Source: Octopus sinensis (Eukaryota). From it: DNA of 64,000 bases. The stretch is from positions 60,760,001 through 60,824,000 of the forward strand of contig NC_043007.1 of assembly GCF_006345805.1 (NCBI RefSeq), given 5' to 3'. Both the position numbers and the translations under genes were made by a program. The notes beneath the pieces were generated by a model. That model was not told where the DNA came from and made no database searches. It saw only the letters and a list, made by a program, of their open reading frames with translations. Shown one piece after another: positions 43,379 through 57,053 of this stretch; the stretch's first letter is position 1, and the number at the start of each line of letters is the position of its first letter.

Positions 43379-43775
43379 TTGTTTTTTCTTATGAAAAATA
43401 TAGAACTGCTTAAGAAGTGCTCGAGTCAAACCTGAGACAAAAAATAAGAATTAAGATACAAACTCAAATTAGGTAATCATACTCATACCATTATAAATTC
43501 AACTTAAAATGCATATACACATATTAATACATATCGACACATATGAAAATTTAAAAATATTTATAAAACATAAATATACATAAAAATACATGTAAACAAA
43601 ACTTGTGTGGGATACATATGGAAGGAAGTGTGAGAAAAGAAGAACTGATAAAAATTTTTTTGTACTAAAATTAAGAGTAGTTAAGAGTTTCAATTCAAAG
43701 ATCCATAGTGTTCAATGTGTTTTTTAAAAATATATAAATGGTATACAAGGTATATAATACAGTTTGAGAAAGTCC

Positions 43776-43871
43776 ACTTTCTACAGCCGTTTCCAGAGTT
43801 CATGTCCTTGTAGAAAAATTAATTAAAAATCTTACAAATCATGCGGACAATGTCCCCCTCATCAGAAAAGG
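43776..43871 (-). ncRNA. Type I hammerhead ribozyme motif with extended stem II
   Basis: CTTTT CTGATGA GGGG..TGTCC..TTGTA..(loop)..TACAA GGACA..CTCT G GAAAC GGCT GTA GAAAG. Core intact; helix III self-complementary. Confidence 0.65.
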
Positions 43872-43892
43872 TATTCTTATAAAATCACATTC

Positions 43893-45395
43893 TTATTTTT
43901 TTATTACCCTCTAGGGGTCAACAAAGATGGGACAATACAATCTGATGGGATCAGATGGTATACAAAGAGATGAAAGTGTTTAAAAATTAATGACATATAA
44001 AATCGGATGTATGTACAAACACAAGACATAAAACAATGAAATGGGGGGACAGGTTCTGCTTTGACTCCACAAGACCCATGCCACCACTGATACCTTAGGT
44101 AAATCCTTTATGGGATATTCATGTGGGTTCATTCATTCGTAACATCCATACCACACTCTTCCATGCTTTCCAAAATGCAACAGCTGACAGGCATCTCCTC
44201 TCCAGCCCCATTTTCCTTTTCAGATGAAAAATGAAAAAAATCACCAATGCAGGGCCAGAGATGAAGGTGCCAGTTGCAAATCCTTTCATTCTGGTCTTCC
44301 ATATAACCTCTTTCACAGCTGCCCCTACTATAAGAAAACAAATCTTACCTTCTTTATTCAAGGAGGCAGGTGGGTCAATTTTTACAACTAACTCAGCAGA
44401 CAGCTGTACTTTTCCAACACTTGACAACAGTTGTTCAACATAAGTCAACAGATCCAACACACCCAAACATTGCACAATTGCATGCAGGACGGTTTCCCTA
44501 TCCTGGGCAAGTCGGTGAGATGGAGTAGCCATGCCTTGCGAGCTTATCCTGGACAGGTAAGGTGCCTTGATAACACTGCCAGGCCAGGGATTTCTGGAAA
44601 TTATCCAGGGACCCCGGCCTGAATGTTCTTCGGAACAGGCTGGTGAGATGATCATTGTTGAAGCCTAGGGTCTCCTCTAAGGTATCTTCACACTTCGACT
44701 CTACTAACCTTCTACAGAATGACACAGTTGAACTGCCACTGCTGGCATTGCCCAAGTGATAGAAAAGTACAAGAACCTTTCAGCACTCCATGTACCAAGT
44801 GTCCAACTTAGATCTACAATAGACCAAGGATTCCAGTCCACAAAAATGTGTGAACTTGGGAAATGTTGATTTAGCAAGCAGAGACCACATCCGTTCACCA
44901 GCCAGGTAGAGCCACAGATGCTTCAGCCTCGGTGCATCATTAGCCATGGCATCAGCCCACCCTTTAACGGTTGTTGGCAGCAGATAGAACACCTCACAAG
45001 TGGTCTTTTGCTCTTCCAGAAAAAGTGAAAGAGCAGTCATTCTAACTTGGTCAGCCACAGATTGGGGCAGGGCACAACAGTTAGGTGGTAAATAATCACT
45101 GATGCCATAAACACATTGGCAACCTCTGCCCTCCCTTTCAAGGATAACTACTGCCCAGACCAGGTCTGGGTTAGGTTGGTCACTCAGCTTGGTACCTTGC
45201 ACCAATTCTTCTCTATGTGGAGATTTGGTCCAAACTAGACCGCTAGCAGTTTAATTGGACTCTCTGTCCAACGTCACATGACGCTTTAAGAGGTATCAAC
45301 TTGCCCCTCCAGGTGCCGAGTTGCAAGCCGATTGACTTTTCACGATTAACCTTGGCTCCTGCCACCATCTCGTATTCCTTAATGGCATTGCCTAC
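43893..45395 (-). mobile_element. Older degenerate L1/Tx1 3' fragment
   Basis: ORF pieces LDNFQKSLAWQCYQGTLPVQDKL, ETVLHAIVQC and LSAELVVKIDPPASLNKEG are homologous to the ORF2 C-terminus at 51791-52660. Confidence 0.8.
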
Positions 45396-45456
45396 CCTCT
45401 GTATTATTTACATTATTTATATTTAACGTATATTTGTCCTCATCTTGTTTGTTGTT

Positions 45457-45502
45457 AACACAATGTTTTGGTTGATATATCCTCCAGCCTTCATCAGGTG
45501 TC
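45457..45502 (-). ncRNA. Minimal type I hammerhead ribozyme motif (Penelope-type), decayed
   Basis: GACAC CTGATGA AGGCTG gaggatatat CAACC AAAA CATT GTGTT. Stems I and II recognisable; GAAA and GUH carry G->A changes. Confidence 0.65.
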
Positions 45503-45552
45503 TAGGGGGAAATTTTGAAGCTGGGTTCTCATTTCTAAGGTATTTTTTAATG

Positions 45553-45585
<33 letters not shown>

Positions 45586-45586
<1 letters not shown>

Positions 45587-45659
45587 GGTCACTGCCAAGA
45601 ATCGAACTCAGAATCTTGGGGTTAGTAGTCTGCGCTCTTAACCACTACGCCATATGCCC
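45586..45659 (-). pseudogene. tRNA-like head (A/B boxes) of a composite repeat
   Basis: GGGCATATGGCGTAGTGGTTAAGAGCGCAGACTACTAACCCCAAGATTCTGAGTTCGATTCTTGGCAGTGACCT. A-box TGGCGTAGTGG and B-box GTTCGATTC present; anticodon and acceptor stems mispaired. Confidence 0.75.
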
Positions 45660-46095
45660 GTGGTTAAGTGTTTAGTATAATGTCCATTGATGTGATATAG
45701 TGATGTGATATAGTGAAGGTTGTAAGAGGAAAAGAAGGGAACACATCGAATATGATTAAGTAGCAAATAATGTAGAGTTGCTTTCATTTTTTATACATAT
45801 ATTCTTCTTCTTCTCCTCCTCCTCCTCCACGCTCTTAACCACTATGCCATATGCCCATGGGCATATGTTGTGTTAACAACAAACAAGATGAGGACAAATA
45901 TCCGTCAAATATAAATAATGTAAATAATGTACATAATTCTTCATCTCTTAAATATAGAACAATATATATTTATATTTTATAAATATTTTTAAAAACATTC
46001 ATATGTGTCGATATGTATTAATATACGTATGCACATTTTAAGTCAAATTTATAACTATATGAGTATGATTGCCTAATTTGAGTTTATATCTTAAT

Positions 46096-46127
<32 letters not shown>

Positions 46128-46890
46128 CATACATAGTTAGACTTGATACATATATTTACATGGAGTCAAAATACAGATTACATAATAAAGAAAAAAAGAA
46201 ACAAAATAGAAAAGAAGAATTATGTCAAGTCTTATCTTGACAGCTATTACAAACAGAAGTGAGGAGGAGGAGGAGGTAAGAAGAAGAAGAAGAAGAATAT
46301 ATGTATAAAAAATGAAAGCAACTCTACATTATTTGCTACTTAATCATATTCAATGTATTCCCTTCTTTTCCTCTTACAACCTTCGCTATATCACATCAAT
46401 GGACATTATACTAAACACTTAACCCAATCCGTCTTCTAGACCCATACCCTACTCAACTTGTTTCCTATCAATGTTTTACTTCAAAATACTAATGTCTAAG
46501 ATGACAAGATAACAAACTAGACATCAACCACATTACTTATATATTGCTGTCATTTCATAAGGAATGAAAACAAGCCCCGGACATACACCTGTTATATTCA
46601 GACTAATTAATAAAATACTTACATTTGTTAGCCCACCCAGAAAATCCTTACATGAAAATATCAACATAAATCAATAACCAGTATTGTTCTAACCTCCCTT
46701 AAAGTGTAGACTGGTACAATGTTATAAAAATCTGACTTTACTGAAGTTGGAGTAGCTTTACCATTCAGTTTTTCTATATTGGCCCTGTTAATTTCTCTTC
46801 TGTTAAACTCTTTTAGAAAAGTTTACTTCATATGCTATATTTCAGAGCAGAAAGATTCTTTCAAAGACATTATCACATTATTATGATTAC

Positions 46891-48208
46891 CTTTCAACCT
46901 GTTTATCTGTTCCTTCAGTGATTTACACTTAGTAATCTTATCTTCATAGGCATTTTGTATTTTAGCCATTTCTTGCTTGGAAGCCTTCATTTCTTCATCT
47001 TTTTCACTCAGATGCTGGCTCAGCTCTCTCTTCATTTCATTGTATTCCTGTTTAGTTTTAACTTTCAAATCTGATATTTCTTCATGGAGATACTTGATTT
47101 GTCTGTTTTGGCTTTCCACTTTATTACAAAGATTTGAGACTGGTTTTTGATAGGTTTTAATTGATGTTTCATACTGCCCATAGACTTTATCAGAAGCAGC
47201 AGGAACAGAATCATATTCAGCCTGTTTTGCCAATTCTTCCTTTTGACTGAGCTTATCCTGGGTATCTTTAAAATTTTTGTATTTTCCTTCCATTGTCGAA
47301 ATTTCTGAAAAATGTTCCTGAGAGATTTCTGAGACCTTCTGTTGCATCTCTCCAACAAGAGAAGTAAGTTTGTCAAGTTTAGTATCTTTTTTATTAATGT
47401 TGCCTGATTTTTCTTCTAACTCCTTTTTCAGTAAATTAGTCTCAGTTTCTTTCTCAGAAACGTTCTCTTTCAAGCTGGTAATAATTTGTGTCAGTTCATT
47501 ATTTGAATTCAGATATTCCTCAACAAGTGAAGATTTCTCTGATAAGGATTTTGTTAGTTCACAAATTCTATTGTCCTTTTCAGAAAGTTGTACACCGATT
47601 TGTTCCACTTCTTTAAGTGTCTCCAAATACCTTTCCTCCAATGATAAATTATGTACTTCGGTTAGTTCTTGAAAACCACCCTTTAATTTACATTTTTGTT
47701 CAATGGTATTTTGATTTACAGTTTCTAGTTTAGGTTTTAAAACAGTTACAAGCTCTTTGGAATCTGCAGTTTCTAGCTCTAATTTTTCAAAGACATCCTG
47801 TTTTTCTCCTGTAAGTTCCTTAAACTGTTTTGCCAGTTCCTTTTTAATGGCTGCATTTTCTTCCAGTAACAATTTTACTTTTTCAAATTCTGTATCTTCT
47901 GTTGAAATATTAGTCTTAGTAGCATGAATAATTTTCTGAGCAAAGTTTTGTATAGAAGATTTTACTGGAGTAACCTTCGTTTGGTGGTGTTGTTCTGATT
48001 TGCATATTTCCTCAATCTGCTGCCAATTAGAATCCCTTACACAAATAGATTCAAGATCTTCTTTCAGTATCTCAATAGTGAGCTGTTTATCCAAAAGTTG
48101 GTGCTGTACATTATCATGTTCACTATTCTCTTTTTCCACCTCATTTTGAAATAAGTCCTTGTTCAATTTCAGACTAATAAATTCTTCTTGCAAATTCAAC
48201 CACTGTGA
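46891..48208 (-). CDS. Coiled-coil gene, repeat module 1 large exon
   Basis: ttttattgcag|TCA; E/K/Q/L-rich heptad ORF 46835..48376. Probable donor AAAG|gtaatc at 46891 (phase 1), upstream of in-frame stops. Confidence 0.8.
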
Positions 48209-49306
48209 CTGCAATAAAAAAAAAAAACACTTTAAATATGATATATATATATAATTTAAATAATAGAATAAAATTAAATATATATTTATAAATGAATAAA
48301 GAATCGCTGTCATCATCATTGTTGTTGTCATTGTCATCATGTTGTCTTCGTCATTATCATCATCATCATTGAACATCCATCTTCCAAATTACATGGATTG
48401 AATGGATCAAAAGGATCTGACTGAGCAAAATTAAGGGCTTAAAGTGACTCCTATAATTGAGGGAGAATAGAAAAGACAGTGCAATTATTCTAGGTGGGGT
48501 GAGGAGAATCGGTAAAGTAAGATGAGAAAAACAGATTTATAGTTGTGACAGGGTAGCAAAAACTGTTGAGTGAAGAAGGGAGGAAATAGAGGAAAAGAAA
48601 GGGTGACGAAGTGGAAAAGTGATTGAGTGGATTGTTTGATGGTTCCAGGGGTATCCCACATTATAAGGTCAAATATGGATAGAAGAAGTGAGGAGAAAGG
48701 AATAGAAAGAGAGAAACAGACAAGTGTGGTGAGGATCCTGGAAAGGTCACTGAAGGAAAGAGAAGTGTGGGGGTCATTGGGGTAGGTCAGAGGGGGAAAG
48801 AGAATGCTTCAAGGGGTGTTGAAGAGGTAAAAAATCTGAGAGGACAATGAGAGAAAAATGAGGCAGAGGATGGTGGAGTAGTGGGTGAGTACAGTGAAAG
48901 CAATGAGGGAAGGAGAGCAAGAGGGTACCATGGATGTAGAGAAGAGGAAGAGCAAAGTGTGAAAGCAGAGACAGCATCCCAGATGGGAACTGTGGGGAGA
49001 GGATGGTGAAAGAGGAAGGGAGAGCAGTGGATAAATACAGCAAGAACAGAGTGAGAAAGAAGAGTTAGAGGGTATCCAAGATGTGTAGTAAGATGAAGGC
49101 AAGAGCAAGTGTTGGGCAACAATAAATGCAACCAGGGAGAGAGTGTGCTGGTTGGTAGTACTGCAGTATGAGTATAGCAGATGAAATGATGGAGGGTGGC
49201 TATCAATGATGGAAAAACAGGAATCATAAAAAGGGTTGAGTGTTAGGATAAAAAGTGAGAAAGAGAATGCAAGGGGGTAGGGGTGGTAAGGTGGAAAATA
49301 TGTGTG

Positions 49307-51790: not shown

Positions 51791-54700
51791 TCACAGGCGA
51801 AACCTGAGAATTGGTCCATTTATACAGGCCAGTCTCGCACAATTCACCCACCTTTCATAAAACTTGCTATCGGACAGCACTTTCCTCTCTAACCTCATTT
51901 TCCTTTTCAAGTGAAACTTGAAAAAGTTGATGAGGCCTTGACCAAAGAGGAAAGTGTCTGTCTTTAGCCCTTTCAAACGAGTCCACCACACGACCTCTTT
52001 CGCCACAGCCTCTAGGCACAAGAAAACGGCCTCGCCCTCCTTGTTAAAGGAGGTCGGCGGGGCAATCTTCACTATGGATTCGGCCGATAGTCGGATCCGT
52101 CCTACACGTGACAGTAGCTGTTCGACATAAACCCATATTTCAGCAATACTCGGGCACTGAACGAGTGCGTGCAGAACGGTTTTGTCGTCCTGGCAACACC
52201 TCGGGCAGGCTCGTCTGACGGCACTTCCGTGCCGGTAGAGTTTATCTCGAACAGGCAGAGCCCCTCGGTAGCACTGCCAGGCGAGAGACCTCTGGAAATT
52301 ATCCATCGGCCCCGGCCCGAAAGTCCTCCCGAACAGACCGCACAGTTCGTCATCTTCAACGCCTAGAGTTTCCCTGAGAACGTCGTCGCAGTTTTCCTCC
52401 ACTAACCCTCTATAGAACGCTAGAGTGGAGCTGTAACCGATCGCATTGCCCGCCTGACGGAGGGTGGAGAGGGCTTGACGGCACTCGAGGTGCCAAGCGT
52501 CCTTTCTCGGTCTACGTTTGATCCAGGTCTGCAGCTCCATCAAAGAGACGAGCTGCGGAAAATCGCGTCTGACAAAAGATGACCACACCTGTTCACCGTC
52601 TAGGAAGCGCTTGAGATGCCGCAGCCTGAGCGCATGTCTGCGCAACAGCAACCACGGCATTCCAAGGCCTCCATTCAGCGGTCGTTGACAGCAGATGGAT
52701 CACCTGACCAGTGGCACCTGACCCTTCCACAAAAAGTCGAAGAGCAGGCGTACCAGCTTGGCCAACCAGCGGTCGGGACAAGGGACGACGGTCAAGCGGT
52801 AATAGATGACGGATGCGATGTACACATTCGCCACCTCCGCTCGACCTTTCAGGGACAGCTTCCTCTCGGCCCATTTCTGGGTGAGACGTGCCACCCTGCT
52901 CGTCACCTCTTCCCAGTTCTTATCCACCTGGAGGTCCGGACCGAACCAGACCCCGAGCAGTTTAACGGGTCCGTCTGTCCAGCGCCCTACGACGCTGTTG
53001 GACGGCATGGGCTTGCCTCTCCAGGTGCCCAGCTGCAAGCCCACAGACTTTTCCGCGTTAATCTTTGCCCGTCACCGCTTCGTACTGGTTTAGCATCTCG
53101 CCAATCAGGCCAATGTGCCTGTGGCCCGACACCACCACGGTGACGTCGTCGGCATAAGCAGACACGCTGTTTCCGCCTCCTAGATCGCGCGGGATACCCC
53201 TCAAAGCCTCCAACTTGCGCAGTAATGGCTCGAGAGTCAAAATGTACAAGAGGGAGGAGAGAGGGCATCCTTGGCGGACCGAACGCGAGATGTTGAACGG
53301 TTCCGAAAGGTGACTGTTCATCCATATCACCGAGCAGATGTTGCTGTATAAAGCAGCGATCCACCCGCGGAAGACTGGACCAAAGCCGGCTGCCCTGAGG
53401 ACAGCTGCCAGGTACCGATGGTCGACCCTATCGAAGGCTTTACTCTGATCCAAGTTATGAAAGCCCCGCCCGCGCCAGCGTCGTTACCCACCCTCTCTAT
53501 GATGTAGCGCATGAGATGGAGGTTGTCGTGTATCGACCTGGTCGGCACGGCACATGTCTGCGTCTTGCCAACCAGCTTGTCCACGACAAGCGCCAATCTC
53601 TTGGCTAGCACCTTGGCCAAAATCTTCAACTCTGCATTGAGCAGAGTGATGGGCCGGAAATTCCCTATAACGTCCCCCTTGTTTGGGTCCTTCTTTAGCA
53701 AAGCCACCACTCCTCGACAGACAAAAGCAGGAATTCTCCCGTTTTGCTGCCAGTTGCAGTAGACGTTTGCCAACAGGTCCGCAAACAAGTCTGGCATTGA
53801 AAAGTAAAGCTCGTAGGGCAGACCATCCAAACCCAGCGATCTACCTCTCGTGCAACTCTTCATCGCTTCCTGTACTTCCCAGGCAGATATCGGTCCTTCG
53901 CAGCACTCTGCCTCGCTGTCCGAGAGTTGCGGTAGGCCGTCCAGGTACACACCGAAGTCTGCACTGTTGTCCGTTCCACCGCTCGTCCCAAACAGTTGAG
54001 CAAAGTGCCGCTGAAGCACCGTACACATCTGCTTCGGTTCGGTAACCTCGCGCCCGTTCTGGTCCACCAAAGACCGAATGGTTGCTCTGTTGCCTCGCTT
54101 CGCCTCCGCCACGCGGGCCCATCGAGCGGCTCTAGTCCCCTCCCCGCTTAGCGAACGTGCCTTAGCTCTGACAATGCAGCCTTCGTGTTTGGCGTCGAAG
54201 TGTTGGTCGAGGGCCAACCTTGCCGCCAACACGTCGGTCGCGATGCCAGTGTCAAGAGCCTCGTCTAGTTTCTTAACTAAATCCCGCTCTCTCTTCCTAC
54301 GTTCAATAGCTAGAGTCTTACTATACCTAATCGACTCTACTCTAATTGCTCTCTTGAGGGCAAACCACCAGTTGTTGTTGATGATTGCCCCCGTGAGCGC
54401 CCGCTTAACTAGTAAACTAATCCGGTCTCTGTGAGCTTTGCACGCCGTTAACGACGCGTTCAGCTTCCAGTAGCCGGGTCCCTGTCTATGTAGCCTATCT
54501 AAGTCGACCATACAGATCACTAATTTGTGGTCCATATATTCGACTAGGTGGAATTGTGGACACCCTACGCTGTCCTTATCCGCTGGCCTACAAAACACTC
54601 TATCTAAGTACGATCTAGACGACCCGATGCGGTTTGTCCAAGTCCACATTGGCACATTCGGGTTGTCTAGTCGAAACCTGTCGGACAGCTGAAAGCGGCC

Positions 54701-55219
54701 GAGTAGGTTGGCGAGGCTCTTGCACCCTCCCCCTCTCCTATCAGACGCTCCCCTGCCCACCCGATCGAAACGTTCGTCTAAGACAGCGTTCCAATCCCCA
54801 ACTAGCACTAGAGTGCGTGACGTTCCCAGGAAAACTTCCAGACGTTTGAAATAATCCAACTGCCCTGCTCCTGTCGGAGCGTAGGCAGCCAGCAGTCTGA
54901 AAGCACCGCCGTCACTACCGTCGACGTCGAGGACCACCAACTTACCTTCCGGATCCAAGAAGACTGTCCTTATTTTCAGGTCCAAGCCCTTCCGAAACAA
55001 CACCGCAGTACCACCACCGCCCGCTCCCAGCCGACACGGAGATAGAAATATCTTGTATCCGCCGAAAAGGGCTGCGAGTTCCTGCGGGTCGGAGAGCCTG
55101 GTTTCACTGATGGCTGCTACATCCACATCATGAAACCTCAGGTCGTTTAACAGGTGACCCTGTTTCCAAGGTGACCCGAGGCCTCTCACATTCAAGCAAC
55201 CGATTCTAAGATTTGCCAT
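51791..55219 (-). pseudogene. Tx1 ORF2 (APE endonuclease + reverse transcriptase + C-terminal CCHC), disrupted
   Basis: APE motifs LNVRGL, GDWNA, SYLDRV, DHKLV; RT motifs FRPITLLN, DQSKAFDRV, RQGCPLS, YADD; C-terminal CPRC..D.T..HAL..C. One-nt frameshifts near 53456 and 53068 and an in-frame TGA at 52700-52702. Confidence 0.92.
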
Positions 55220-55258
55220 GTCTCAAAAGTAGGGGAAAAAAAAAGGAGAAAAAAGGCT

Positions 55259-57053
55259 CTACTTACTGTTGTTGGTGGTGGGGGTGGCTCCCTTGTGCTT
55301 TTGCACGGGTGCTTCCACAATGTTTTTATAAAGTTTCTTCGAGAAACTTTTCCCTAGCGATCCCACATCATTAGGGAATATTTGTTTGATTTCATCATAT
55401 GTTTTTGCATTTATTTTTATTGTGAGAATGTGTGCTGGTGGTGTGTTTTGTGTTGGTATGATGAAATCGGTTATATTTGTACTAGTTTTGTTTTTTAAGT
55501 ACTCCACTAATTTTTGGTTCTTTGTGTTTATTGATGTAATTGTGTCTGTGTGTGTTTGTGTGTGTGGCAGTGGCAGTAGTGGTGTCGAAAGTGTTGTTGT
55601 TGTTTGTTGTTGTTGTGAATGTGTGTTGTCGTTAATGTTGTTGTTGATGTTTGGAGGCACTATTTGTTCGTGCTTCCCCTGTAAATCTTTTTGTTTTTTC
55701 CTCCTTTTCTTCTTTGGAGGCACTATGCTCCATTCTCCTTTGTTGGAATCAGAGCTCGCACAATCCGACTCTTCATCCGGCAAAGGAATGGTTGATGGGT
55801 CTGCTTCAGTAGCAGGACGAAAGGTTTTTGGTTCCGCCGGTATCGGTGGTGCCGCTGCTCCTATTGCTGTTGATGTTGCTGCTGTCGATCTTCAAGGTAC
55901 TGGTGTCGGTGTTGGTTTGGTGGTGGTTGTTGTTGTTGGAGGTGGTGTTGTTTGTCTTGGTGCTGGTGATGGTGTTGGTGGTGTGGCAGCTTTTGGTGTT
56001 TCGTGCTGTTTCTGTTGTTGTTGTTGTTACTTCCTCTTGTTGTACTCCTCCATCCTCTTTTTTTGAATGGGGCAGTCCCTCTTTAAGTGGCCTTCGCTGC
56101 TGCAGAGGAAACATTTTGGCTTTCGCCCCTCCACAGCAACGTTTAGCCTGGTGCCGTCCGGCAAACTTACGAAATCAGGGACTTTACTGATATTTTCTTG
56201 CTGAATTTGCGCAAGAAGCAGCACTCCCATCCCCAACCAGTTTTTCGCCCTCACTCTCCTGACATCTAGAATGGTGGTAGTGTCCTCTATATCATAGAGG
56301 ACAGCTGCCACCAGCCATGACATATCTAGCTCAGGGGGGGCAAGGTCGATCTTTATTTTTGTTACTCTTCGCCCGAGGTGGGTCGGGACTTGTAACAAAT
56401 TCTCAGTTTGCAAGGGCGAAATGGCGTTCGCCCTTGCAAGCTCCTCTGTTGGGAAGCGAACCTCCACGGTTCCGAAACGCTTCCCCTTGGTTACGTAGCT
56501 CTTTTTGGCCCAAATGGGCTTTAGAGCTATCTCTAACTGTTGGGGTGTGGCATTTGTCATTTTTTTGAGTTTCCTATCGAAAACTTTGTATGTGATTGTT
56601 TTTTTGTTTGTGTCTTCAATCACCTCTTGTGGAGTACTGAGGAAGATGCTGTTGCCATCCTTTCTCAATAATTCTTTAGCTTTTTTTATTTCTTCTAAAG
56701 TTATCTTAACTTCCTCCGAAATTTGCTTCGCAGCAGAAGCAAAATTGTTGGAAATTTTTCCATTTTTTTTCTTTGTTCTTGTCTGTGTTTGTGTCCGTTA
56801 TAACCTTCCTCTCCTCCCCCTTCGGTACAACATCACTTGTTGAAGGCAGAGGGGGGAAATCAGGAGTGACGTCGAACGCGACGTCCTGGCTAGCATTCTC
56901 CTTTTGAACGGTGCGCGTGCTTTCCGTTTCGGAAGGAGGAGCTCTGTTGCCTTTTACGGCGCGAAGTGGGTGTTTTTTTGGTGATAATGTGTGTGTTTGC
57001 GGAGGGAATGTAAATGGAAGGAAGGAACAGCTAACTGCTCGCTTCATAGCCAT
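55259..57053 (-). pseudogene. Tx1 ORF1 (gag-like zinc-knuckle protein), disrupted
   Basis: CX2CX4HX4C knuckle CFLCSSEGHLKRDC and a Pro/Thr-rich linker. One frameshift in the A-run near 56765 and in-frame stops near 56027 and 55892. Confidence 0.85.

Follow-up and report, generated by a model that had tools for sequence, protein, structure and literature searches.

Penelope-like elements (PLEs) offer the closest described parallels to the sequence reported here. PAc of Anolis carolinensis has two internal priming sites in the start of its open reading frame (ORF), which in vitro give two classes of tail; no reads were seen to end at the hammerhead cut, and cleavage was not needed in vitro (PMC11167929). 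A one-sided tail of 30-40 nt is described for PLEs (PMC8557442), and Penelope of D. virilis has a LINE-like, TATA-less internal promoter (PMC2377424), which we count against the RNA polymerase III (Pol III) promoter discussed below. In this study, we have explored a composite repeat of Octopus sinensis in a window of 64,000 nucleotides (contig NC_043007.1, positions 60,760,001 to 60,824,000, forward strand; coordinates below are those of the window). We regard it as probable that at this locus the end repeat of a coding PLE was inserted as two arms and has since decayed; it is an element whose tRNA-like head is likely an internal Pol III promoter and which the element's own enzyme likely copied.

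Results

A first-pass annotation had described a head, (TAA)n, a hammerhead motif and a tail on the minus strand, and these coordinates hold on re-reading the sequence. The tRNA-derived head of the end repeat (pLTR) covers 74 nt (45586..45659, -), with an A box at 45652-45642 and a B box at 45607-45599, and is likely, from these boxes, to be a Pol III promoter. A (TAA)n spacer whose length differs from copy to copy (about 45553..45585, -) joins it to the 5' part of the body (45503..45552, -), where the ORF start codon lies at 45532 in a frame that is broken in this copy. The minimal type I hammerhead motif follows (45457..45502, -; CTGATGA at 45497-45491), with a predicted cut between 45462 and 45461, and then a short tail that contains the first ORF codons and ends in 9-nt repeats (45403..45456, -). 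In this main arm A replaces core G12, one stem II base and the triplet G (ATT vs GTT); these changes also cost stem II one of its pairs, and the hammerhead is predicted to be dead.

Between the two arms lies captured flank DNA (45662..45828, -), an inverted copy of a donor in the flank outside the element (46269..46424, +); this sequence is found in these 2 places only in the whole genome. Beyond it are a head fragment comprising nucleotides 1-27 (45830..45856, -) and a 20-nt palindrome (45848..45867), perfect over its whole length, in which two head starts face away from each other on either side of a hairpin that already belongs to the coding element. The inverted arm (45867..45960, +) joins nucleotides 1-9 of the head (45859-45867) to the body at GTT and has a long tail. 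The head-to-head inverted tail copy noticed earlier after the palindrome is thus real, being 97% complementary over 61 nt (45868-45928) and extending to 45960. It was also correct that this arm begins within about 3 nt of the predicted cut and keeps the triplet that is mutated to ATT in the main arm: its GTT (45867-45869) lies 3 nt ahead of the cut, and the G is equally readable as nucleotide 9 of the head fragment. The locus itself is an ordinary dead two-armed stub, with one short and one long tail.

No target-site duplication is evident around the insertion. On one side lies an old 5'-truncated LINE piece (about 43400-45399, -), 70% like a LINE at 52-57 kb, and on the other an oppositely oriented piece (45963-46098, +) that matches the 3' region of the same LINE at 87%; two frames from these LINE flanks gave no match in Pfam. 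The near-complete LINE (51791-56797, -) has a zinc-knuckle ORF1-like frame and an endonuclease-reverse transcriptase frame in pieces, and is probably of L1/Tx1 type, to judge from its motifs. About 0.9 kb from the element, on the same strand, is a coiled-coil-like open frame of 517 aa (46835-48388, -) with weak Pfam matches only, which is probably a host exon.

Copies of the unit are numerous and scattered over the 2.72 Gb of genome searched, where a first look gave 3526 candidates. A 29-nt motif from the tail had 6109 exact matches and an 18-mer from the head 2044; exact head-to-body joins with a spacer of <=33 nt numbered 676, and every control gave 0. The expected co-occurrence of head and ribozyme is therefore borne out by the 676 joins, and by a same-strand downstream body in 22/30 head-anchored loci, the other 8/30 having none. 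The family majority has intact A and B boxes and restores the catalytic core, as had been anticipated (CUGANGA, GAAA and a GUU triplet), with the free position 7 as the only frequent non-CpG core variant. The whole core is intact in 29/118 arms, the window copy not among them, and copies diverge by about 6% at non-CpG positions among the best candidates scored.

ARAGORN and Rfam, run on the window and five better copies, called neither a tRNA nor a hammerhead. Aligned with tRNAs of the host genome, found in 46 fetched places, the head is in register with 47/74 identities at best and a score of 59 vs a maximum of 40 in 300 shuffles; no single isoacceptor is favoured as the source. In having a tRNA-related head with A and B boxes, the unit resembles a SINE. 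Five head-started copies (L199, L304, L311, L312 and L315) have head-body gaps of 300-1400 nt, apparently from expanded triplet repeats.

Taken together, the head, its (TAA)n spacer, the hammerhead motif and the tail form the pLTR of a coding PLE with reverse transcriptase (RT) and a GIY-YIG endonuclease (EN). The open frame of the body runs from the ATG through the hammerhead and tail, and in three loci (L159, L151 and L170) the tail continues into the RT ORF, which confirms the suggested match to a PLE of the autonomous RT + GIY-YIG type. One of them, L159, is a 2.7-kb head-ORF-head unit that starts at the head, and is the only full-length copy with a 5' head that we saw. A 5'-ward walk along the element reached an RT (RVT_1, 40.4 bits, cut-off 29.6) that is 30-34% identical to the RT of a Neptune-type PLE in the same genome (E to 5e-25); telomerase RT (E 0.009) is among its weak matches in PDB. 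In two loci a GIY-YIG-like C-terminus ends about 30 nt before the head. A search with this C-terminus gave 4017 candidates, and the head stood directly behind the EN stop in 28 of the 30 loci fetched (one being the query's own), always at a spacing of 28-32 nt; contigs from 4/4 sequencing runs with other organism labels also bridge the EN-to-head junction. The placement of GIY-YIG in the same ORF is by tblastn from a PF01541-positive locus (E 1e-5) and a Y..ET motif behind the RT, rather than by a direct Pfam score; a search with PF01541 itself recovered other (Neptune-type) PLE families, and the element studied in 0/30 fetched loci.

First-look candidates drop 5'-ward, from 36,750 for the body to 4017 for the EN and 402 for the 5' part of the RT. 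No intact ORF was found: every copy examined has stops or frameshifts, and the longest frames are <400 aa among 150 matches listed; a body-peptide search likewise gave no long ORF among the 150 matches listed. By every tested feature except present activity, the element belongs to the EN+ PLEs, with a PLE-type RT, a C-terminal GIY-YIG, pLTR direct repeats, inverted 5'-truncated arms, a one-sided tail and a minimal hammerhead motif. It has no extra Zn-finger linker such as that seen in the Neptune-type copies of the same genome, which makes the Poseidon clade its tentative placement. The Neptune-type PLE family (L037, L038, L047 and others) is abundant and apparently younger; its open frames are long, at 780-883 aa among those listed. 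Two other GIY-YIG matches (L040 and L041) resemble an SLX1-type nuclease of the host and a duplicate of that gene.

These data bear on the reading in which the head is an independent SINE of the Sm-alpha kind, or one nested by chance in a Penelope end, and the inverted arm derives from ribozyme-cleaved RNA. SINEs that combine Pol III with a hammerhead do exist in Schistosoma (PMC6765202), the heads without a same-strand downstream body are of the kind expected, and the inverted arm of the window starts within 3 nt of the predicted cut. The fixed spacing behind the EN stop contradicts this reading, as do the arm starts described below; independent origin or chance nesting is largely refuted, and we consider this reading very improbable.

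To describe the architecture of the copies, we used 90 loci taken in genome order, with 144 arms (two pairs of loci look like duplicates). The arms fall into two 3' end classes, short tail and long tail. Divergent pairs occur in 49/90 loci, and 45 of 50 pairs are long plus short, as in the window, 5 being short plus short and 0 long plus long. This pattern is that of the one-sided PLE tail (PMC8557442), which PMC11167929 traced to two internal priming sites in the ORF start; each arm, we infer, was made in its own pass from one or the other of these sites. Copies are mostly solo or head-to-head; a retrozyme or Sm-alpha-like unit of non-coding head-to-tail repeats was rejected on this ground and because the body is an ORF start.

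The 5' ends pile up at the head: 31 of the 144 arms end within -7..+8 of it, 1 between -8 and -59 and 21 further upstream, while 35/144 end inside (TAA)n and cannot be placed. Similarly, 25/30 head-anchored loci start at the head and 5 continue into the EN. In the coding element a native hairpin lies at -7..+5 of the head, and the palindrome of the window grew from it. This hairpin is central to a different reading, in which the head is a mere relic, left by a tRNA or SINE fragment that once entered the pLTR of an ordinary Penelope transcribed by Pol II, the short copies are 5'-truncated stubs and the hairpin stops or folds the cDNA. Palindromic junctions in 15/84 head-started copies agree with it, as do the failure of the short copies to form a sequence lineage and the fact that PLEs in general have such tails and inverted arms truncated at the 5' end (PMC8557442). 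Against it, 69/84 head-started copies have no palindromic extension, the family has kept its A and B boxes, and a passenger head does not predict the depletion of T runs along the ORF (see below). We judge it unlikely.

Short copies exceed EN-bearing ones about 5-9 to 1, and (TAA)n is longer in head-started than in ORF-linked copies (median 41 vs 19 nt, p 0.0002, for sets that were chosen differently). Both observations would suit a scheme in which Pol III makes only the short RNAs, the short copies being SINE masters copied in trans and the coding RNA coming from Pol II read-through, all within one family; apart from this last point the scheme is close to the one first proposed. We consider this improbable, as the ORF itself has no runs of four or more T (T4+), internal priming in the first pLTR gives short copies without separate masters, and none of 261 tests returned a diagnostic base. 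There is no sign of a separate non-autonomous SINE lineage: the head lies inside the coding element, and at the same 261 positions (smallest p 0.0013) copies that start at the head cannot be told from those linked to the ORF. The SINE/retrozyme hybrid mobilised by a PLE, as first proposed, thus survives in its choice of enzyme, PLE enzymes fitting the rule of one long and one short tail, and fails in its separate non-autonomous partner, the head being in the coding element's own pLTR. At its tip the element works like a tRNA SINE, yet it has no non-autonomous lineage distinct from the coding copies.

We also investigated whether the start of the inverted arm at the predicted cut is meaningful, as had been claimed; the family argues that it is not. 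Arm starts spread over the body, and 6/144 fall at family positions 186-200, a rate like that of the rest of the body. A search for an exact break at the cut gave 764 matches, which can be compared only roughly, as pattern counts, with 105 for a control pattern 3 nt downstream; of 30 loci fetched, selected for such a break, 1 had a true junction, 25 had a 3-nt deletion in a continuous motif and 4 had substitutions. Jumps from the same head palindrome elsewhere land at family positions 154, 156, 156, 164, 192, 210 and 215, mostly at short microhomologies. The start of the window's inverted arm at the predicted cut is therefore best read as chance, and these counts also weigh against an arm made from cleaved RNA.

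The deletions themselves mark a hot spot. At the predicted cleavage triplet, 18/131 arms have a deletion of 2-5 nt, 13 of the 18 being 3 nt; this triplet deletion (family positions 188-191, window 45465-45462) is in frame for the ORF, affects about 10% of arms and recurs in the loci fetched for the break (L261-L290) and in 4/45 arms of ORF-selected loci. At 61 ORF control sites with the same kind of microhomology we counted 6 deletions in 2488 site-copies (vs 13/131 arms); one control site had 3/29, and 1239 windows put the 99th percentile at 5.4%. The deletion is not a subfamily marker, because 28/32 pairs with the deletion have it in one arm only (the set includes 30 loci from a selection enriched for the deletion, and a few of its rows are duplicates). 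Arms of one pair share other variants 3.5-fold above shuffles. Between two sets that were anchored differently, non-CpG divergence is equal in arms with and without the deletion (6.0 vs 5.9%), and CpG decay is greater in deleted arms (25 vs 14%, p 0.002). The hot spot is possibly a footprint of ribozyme cleavage: an RT that crossed cut RNA by a 2-nt match would leave exactly such a triplet deletion, and templates with an inactive ribozyme would then not yield it. The rival explanation is slippage, since the site is rich in GT and flanked by two palindromes.

Runs of at least four T terminate transcription by Pol III (PMC3141230). On the sense strand, 84 kb of copies have 0.21 T4+ runs per kb, vs 1.04 per kb in dinucleotide shuffles, and no T4+ site is common to more than 3 of 37 well-covered copies. 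In five codon-aware tilings of 2.5 kb we observed 0, 0, 1, 0 and 0 runs, where 2.6-3.2 per tiling are expected from the element's own codon use and 3.7-4.9 from that of the Neptune-type family; the corresponding P values, which describe one ancestral sequence, are 0.03-0.23 and 0.003-0.09. Single full copies compared with dinucleotide shuffles gave P of 0.08-0.21. As controls, EN regions of other PLEs have 16 runs in 4.7 kb (about 3.4/kb) vs 2 in 10.8 kb of the studied family, and the Neptune-type ORF has 6 in 1.8 kb. The depletion is suggestive and not proof, because it concerns a single ancestral sequence and because the hairpin alone could account for the 5' edge. In three RNA-seq runs (one study, one organism label, about 6% of reads), both strands were about equally represented, with no pile of starts or ends, a picture that speaks neither for nor against a promoter or cleavage. 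None of the listed sequence records that contain the stretch is registered as RNA. Based on the A and B boxes, the pile of 5' ends and the T4+ depletion, the head is likely an internal Pol III promoter.

Discussion

Our preferred reading, that of a decayed end repeat of a coding PLE with a probable Pol III promoter, builds on features that were directly observed, namely the anatomy, the head behind the EN stop, the ORF running from body through hammerhead and tail to the RT, the two 3' classes and the 5' pile. In our model the element is a unit of about 2.7 kb comprising the head, (TAA)n, the hammerhead, an RT + GIY-YIG ORF and the head again. Pol III would start a few bases before the head and, meeting no T4+ run, would be able to continue through the entire unit into the pLTR that follows. 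As PAc does in vitro, the element's protein would prime reverse transcription internally, at two positions near the start of the ORF, giving the short and the long tail. A cDNA primed in the first pLTR would reach the end of its template at the head, some 290 nt on, and become a SINE-like copy; one primed in the second would become a 5'-truncated coding copy. Two passes, one per site, would be joined head to head by fold-back of the native hairpin or at short microhomologies; at the window locus this joining may have taken up 167 bp of flanking DNA and included a jump between nucleotide 9 of the head and the GTT.

A stronger version can be put forward only tentatively, and we lean against it in its entirety. 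This would be a coding retrotransposon that has captured a tRNA promoter, is transcribed from it by Pol III over its full length, has lost the T4+ terminators from its 2.4-kb ORF and makes its own SINE by internal priming; the recurrent loss of GUU in single arms would reflect RT jumps over hammerhead-cut RNA, the first genomic trace of PLE cleavage in vivo. If true, it would blur the boundary between SINEs and autonomous elements, one element being promoter, enzyme and short passenger at once, and would offer a direct model of how the end of an autonomous partner can give rise to a SINE. A coding RNA made by Pol III would be cap-less, and its translation would therefore need an unexplained, cap-independent route.

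Octopus tRNA-derived SINEs were reportedly described by Ohshima and Okada in 1994, and the tRNA-derived head is the feature that they share with the element studied; this head may already be catalogued among those SINEs or in Repbase. Our literature search, which covered papers mostly at the level of result lists, found no PLE with a tRNA head and, at the same level, no recurrent triplet deletion in published PLE hammerheads. In the parts of the main text of the 2026 octopus repeat paper (PMC13282606) that the search covered, no mention of hammerheads was found. The locus is ordinary; what sets the family apart is the tRNA head inside the pLTR of a coding PLE.

Several known systems share parts of this design. 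Like Penelope/Poseidon-type EN+ PLEs such as PAc (PMC11167929, PMC8557442), the element has an RT followed by a C-terminal GIY-YIG and a pLTR that includes the ORF start; its hammerhead overlaps that start, with the cut downstream of the ATG, its two 3' classes lie 30-40 nt apart, and its 5'-truncated arms are inverted. Unlike them, it has a tRNA-derived head with A and B boxes and (TAA)n between the EN stop and the ORF start, its 5' ends pile at the head and its sense strand has no T4+ runs. Its ribozyme resembles the minimal hammerheads of metazoan PLEs (PMC4209133) in a helix I of 5 bp, an unpaired base between 9 and 10.1, G10.1-C11.1, a palindromic 15.2-16.2 and no loop III, such that it would need a dimer, but differs in a helix II of 5-6 bp rather than 7-8, the GUU triplet and the recurrent triplet deletion. 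As in Sm-alpha and Sj-alpha of Schistosoma (PMC6765202, PMC8490949), a Pol III-type promoter precedes a type I hammerhead in a short repeat; those repeats are non-coding, often tandem and have active canonical hammerheads, whereas the unit studied is the end of a coding PLE, with inverted pairs and a minimal hammerhead. Finally, Cassandra, Helenus and Ajax (PMC10886601) also have a Pol III-type small RNA sequence inside a terminal repeat, but they are non-autonomous LTR elements, whereas the element described here is a coding PLE.
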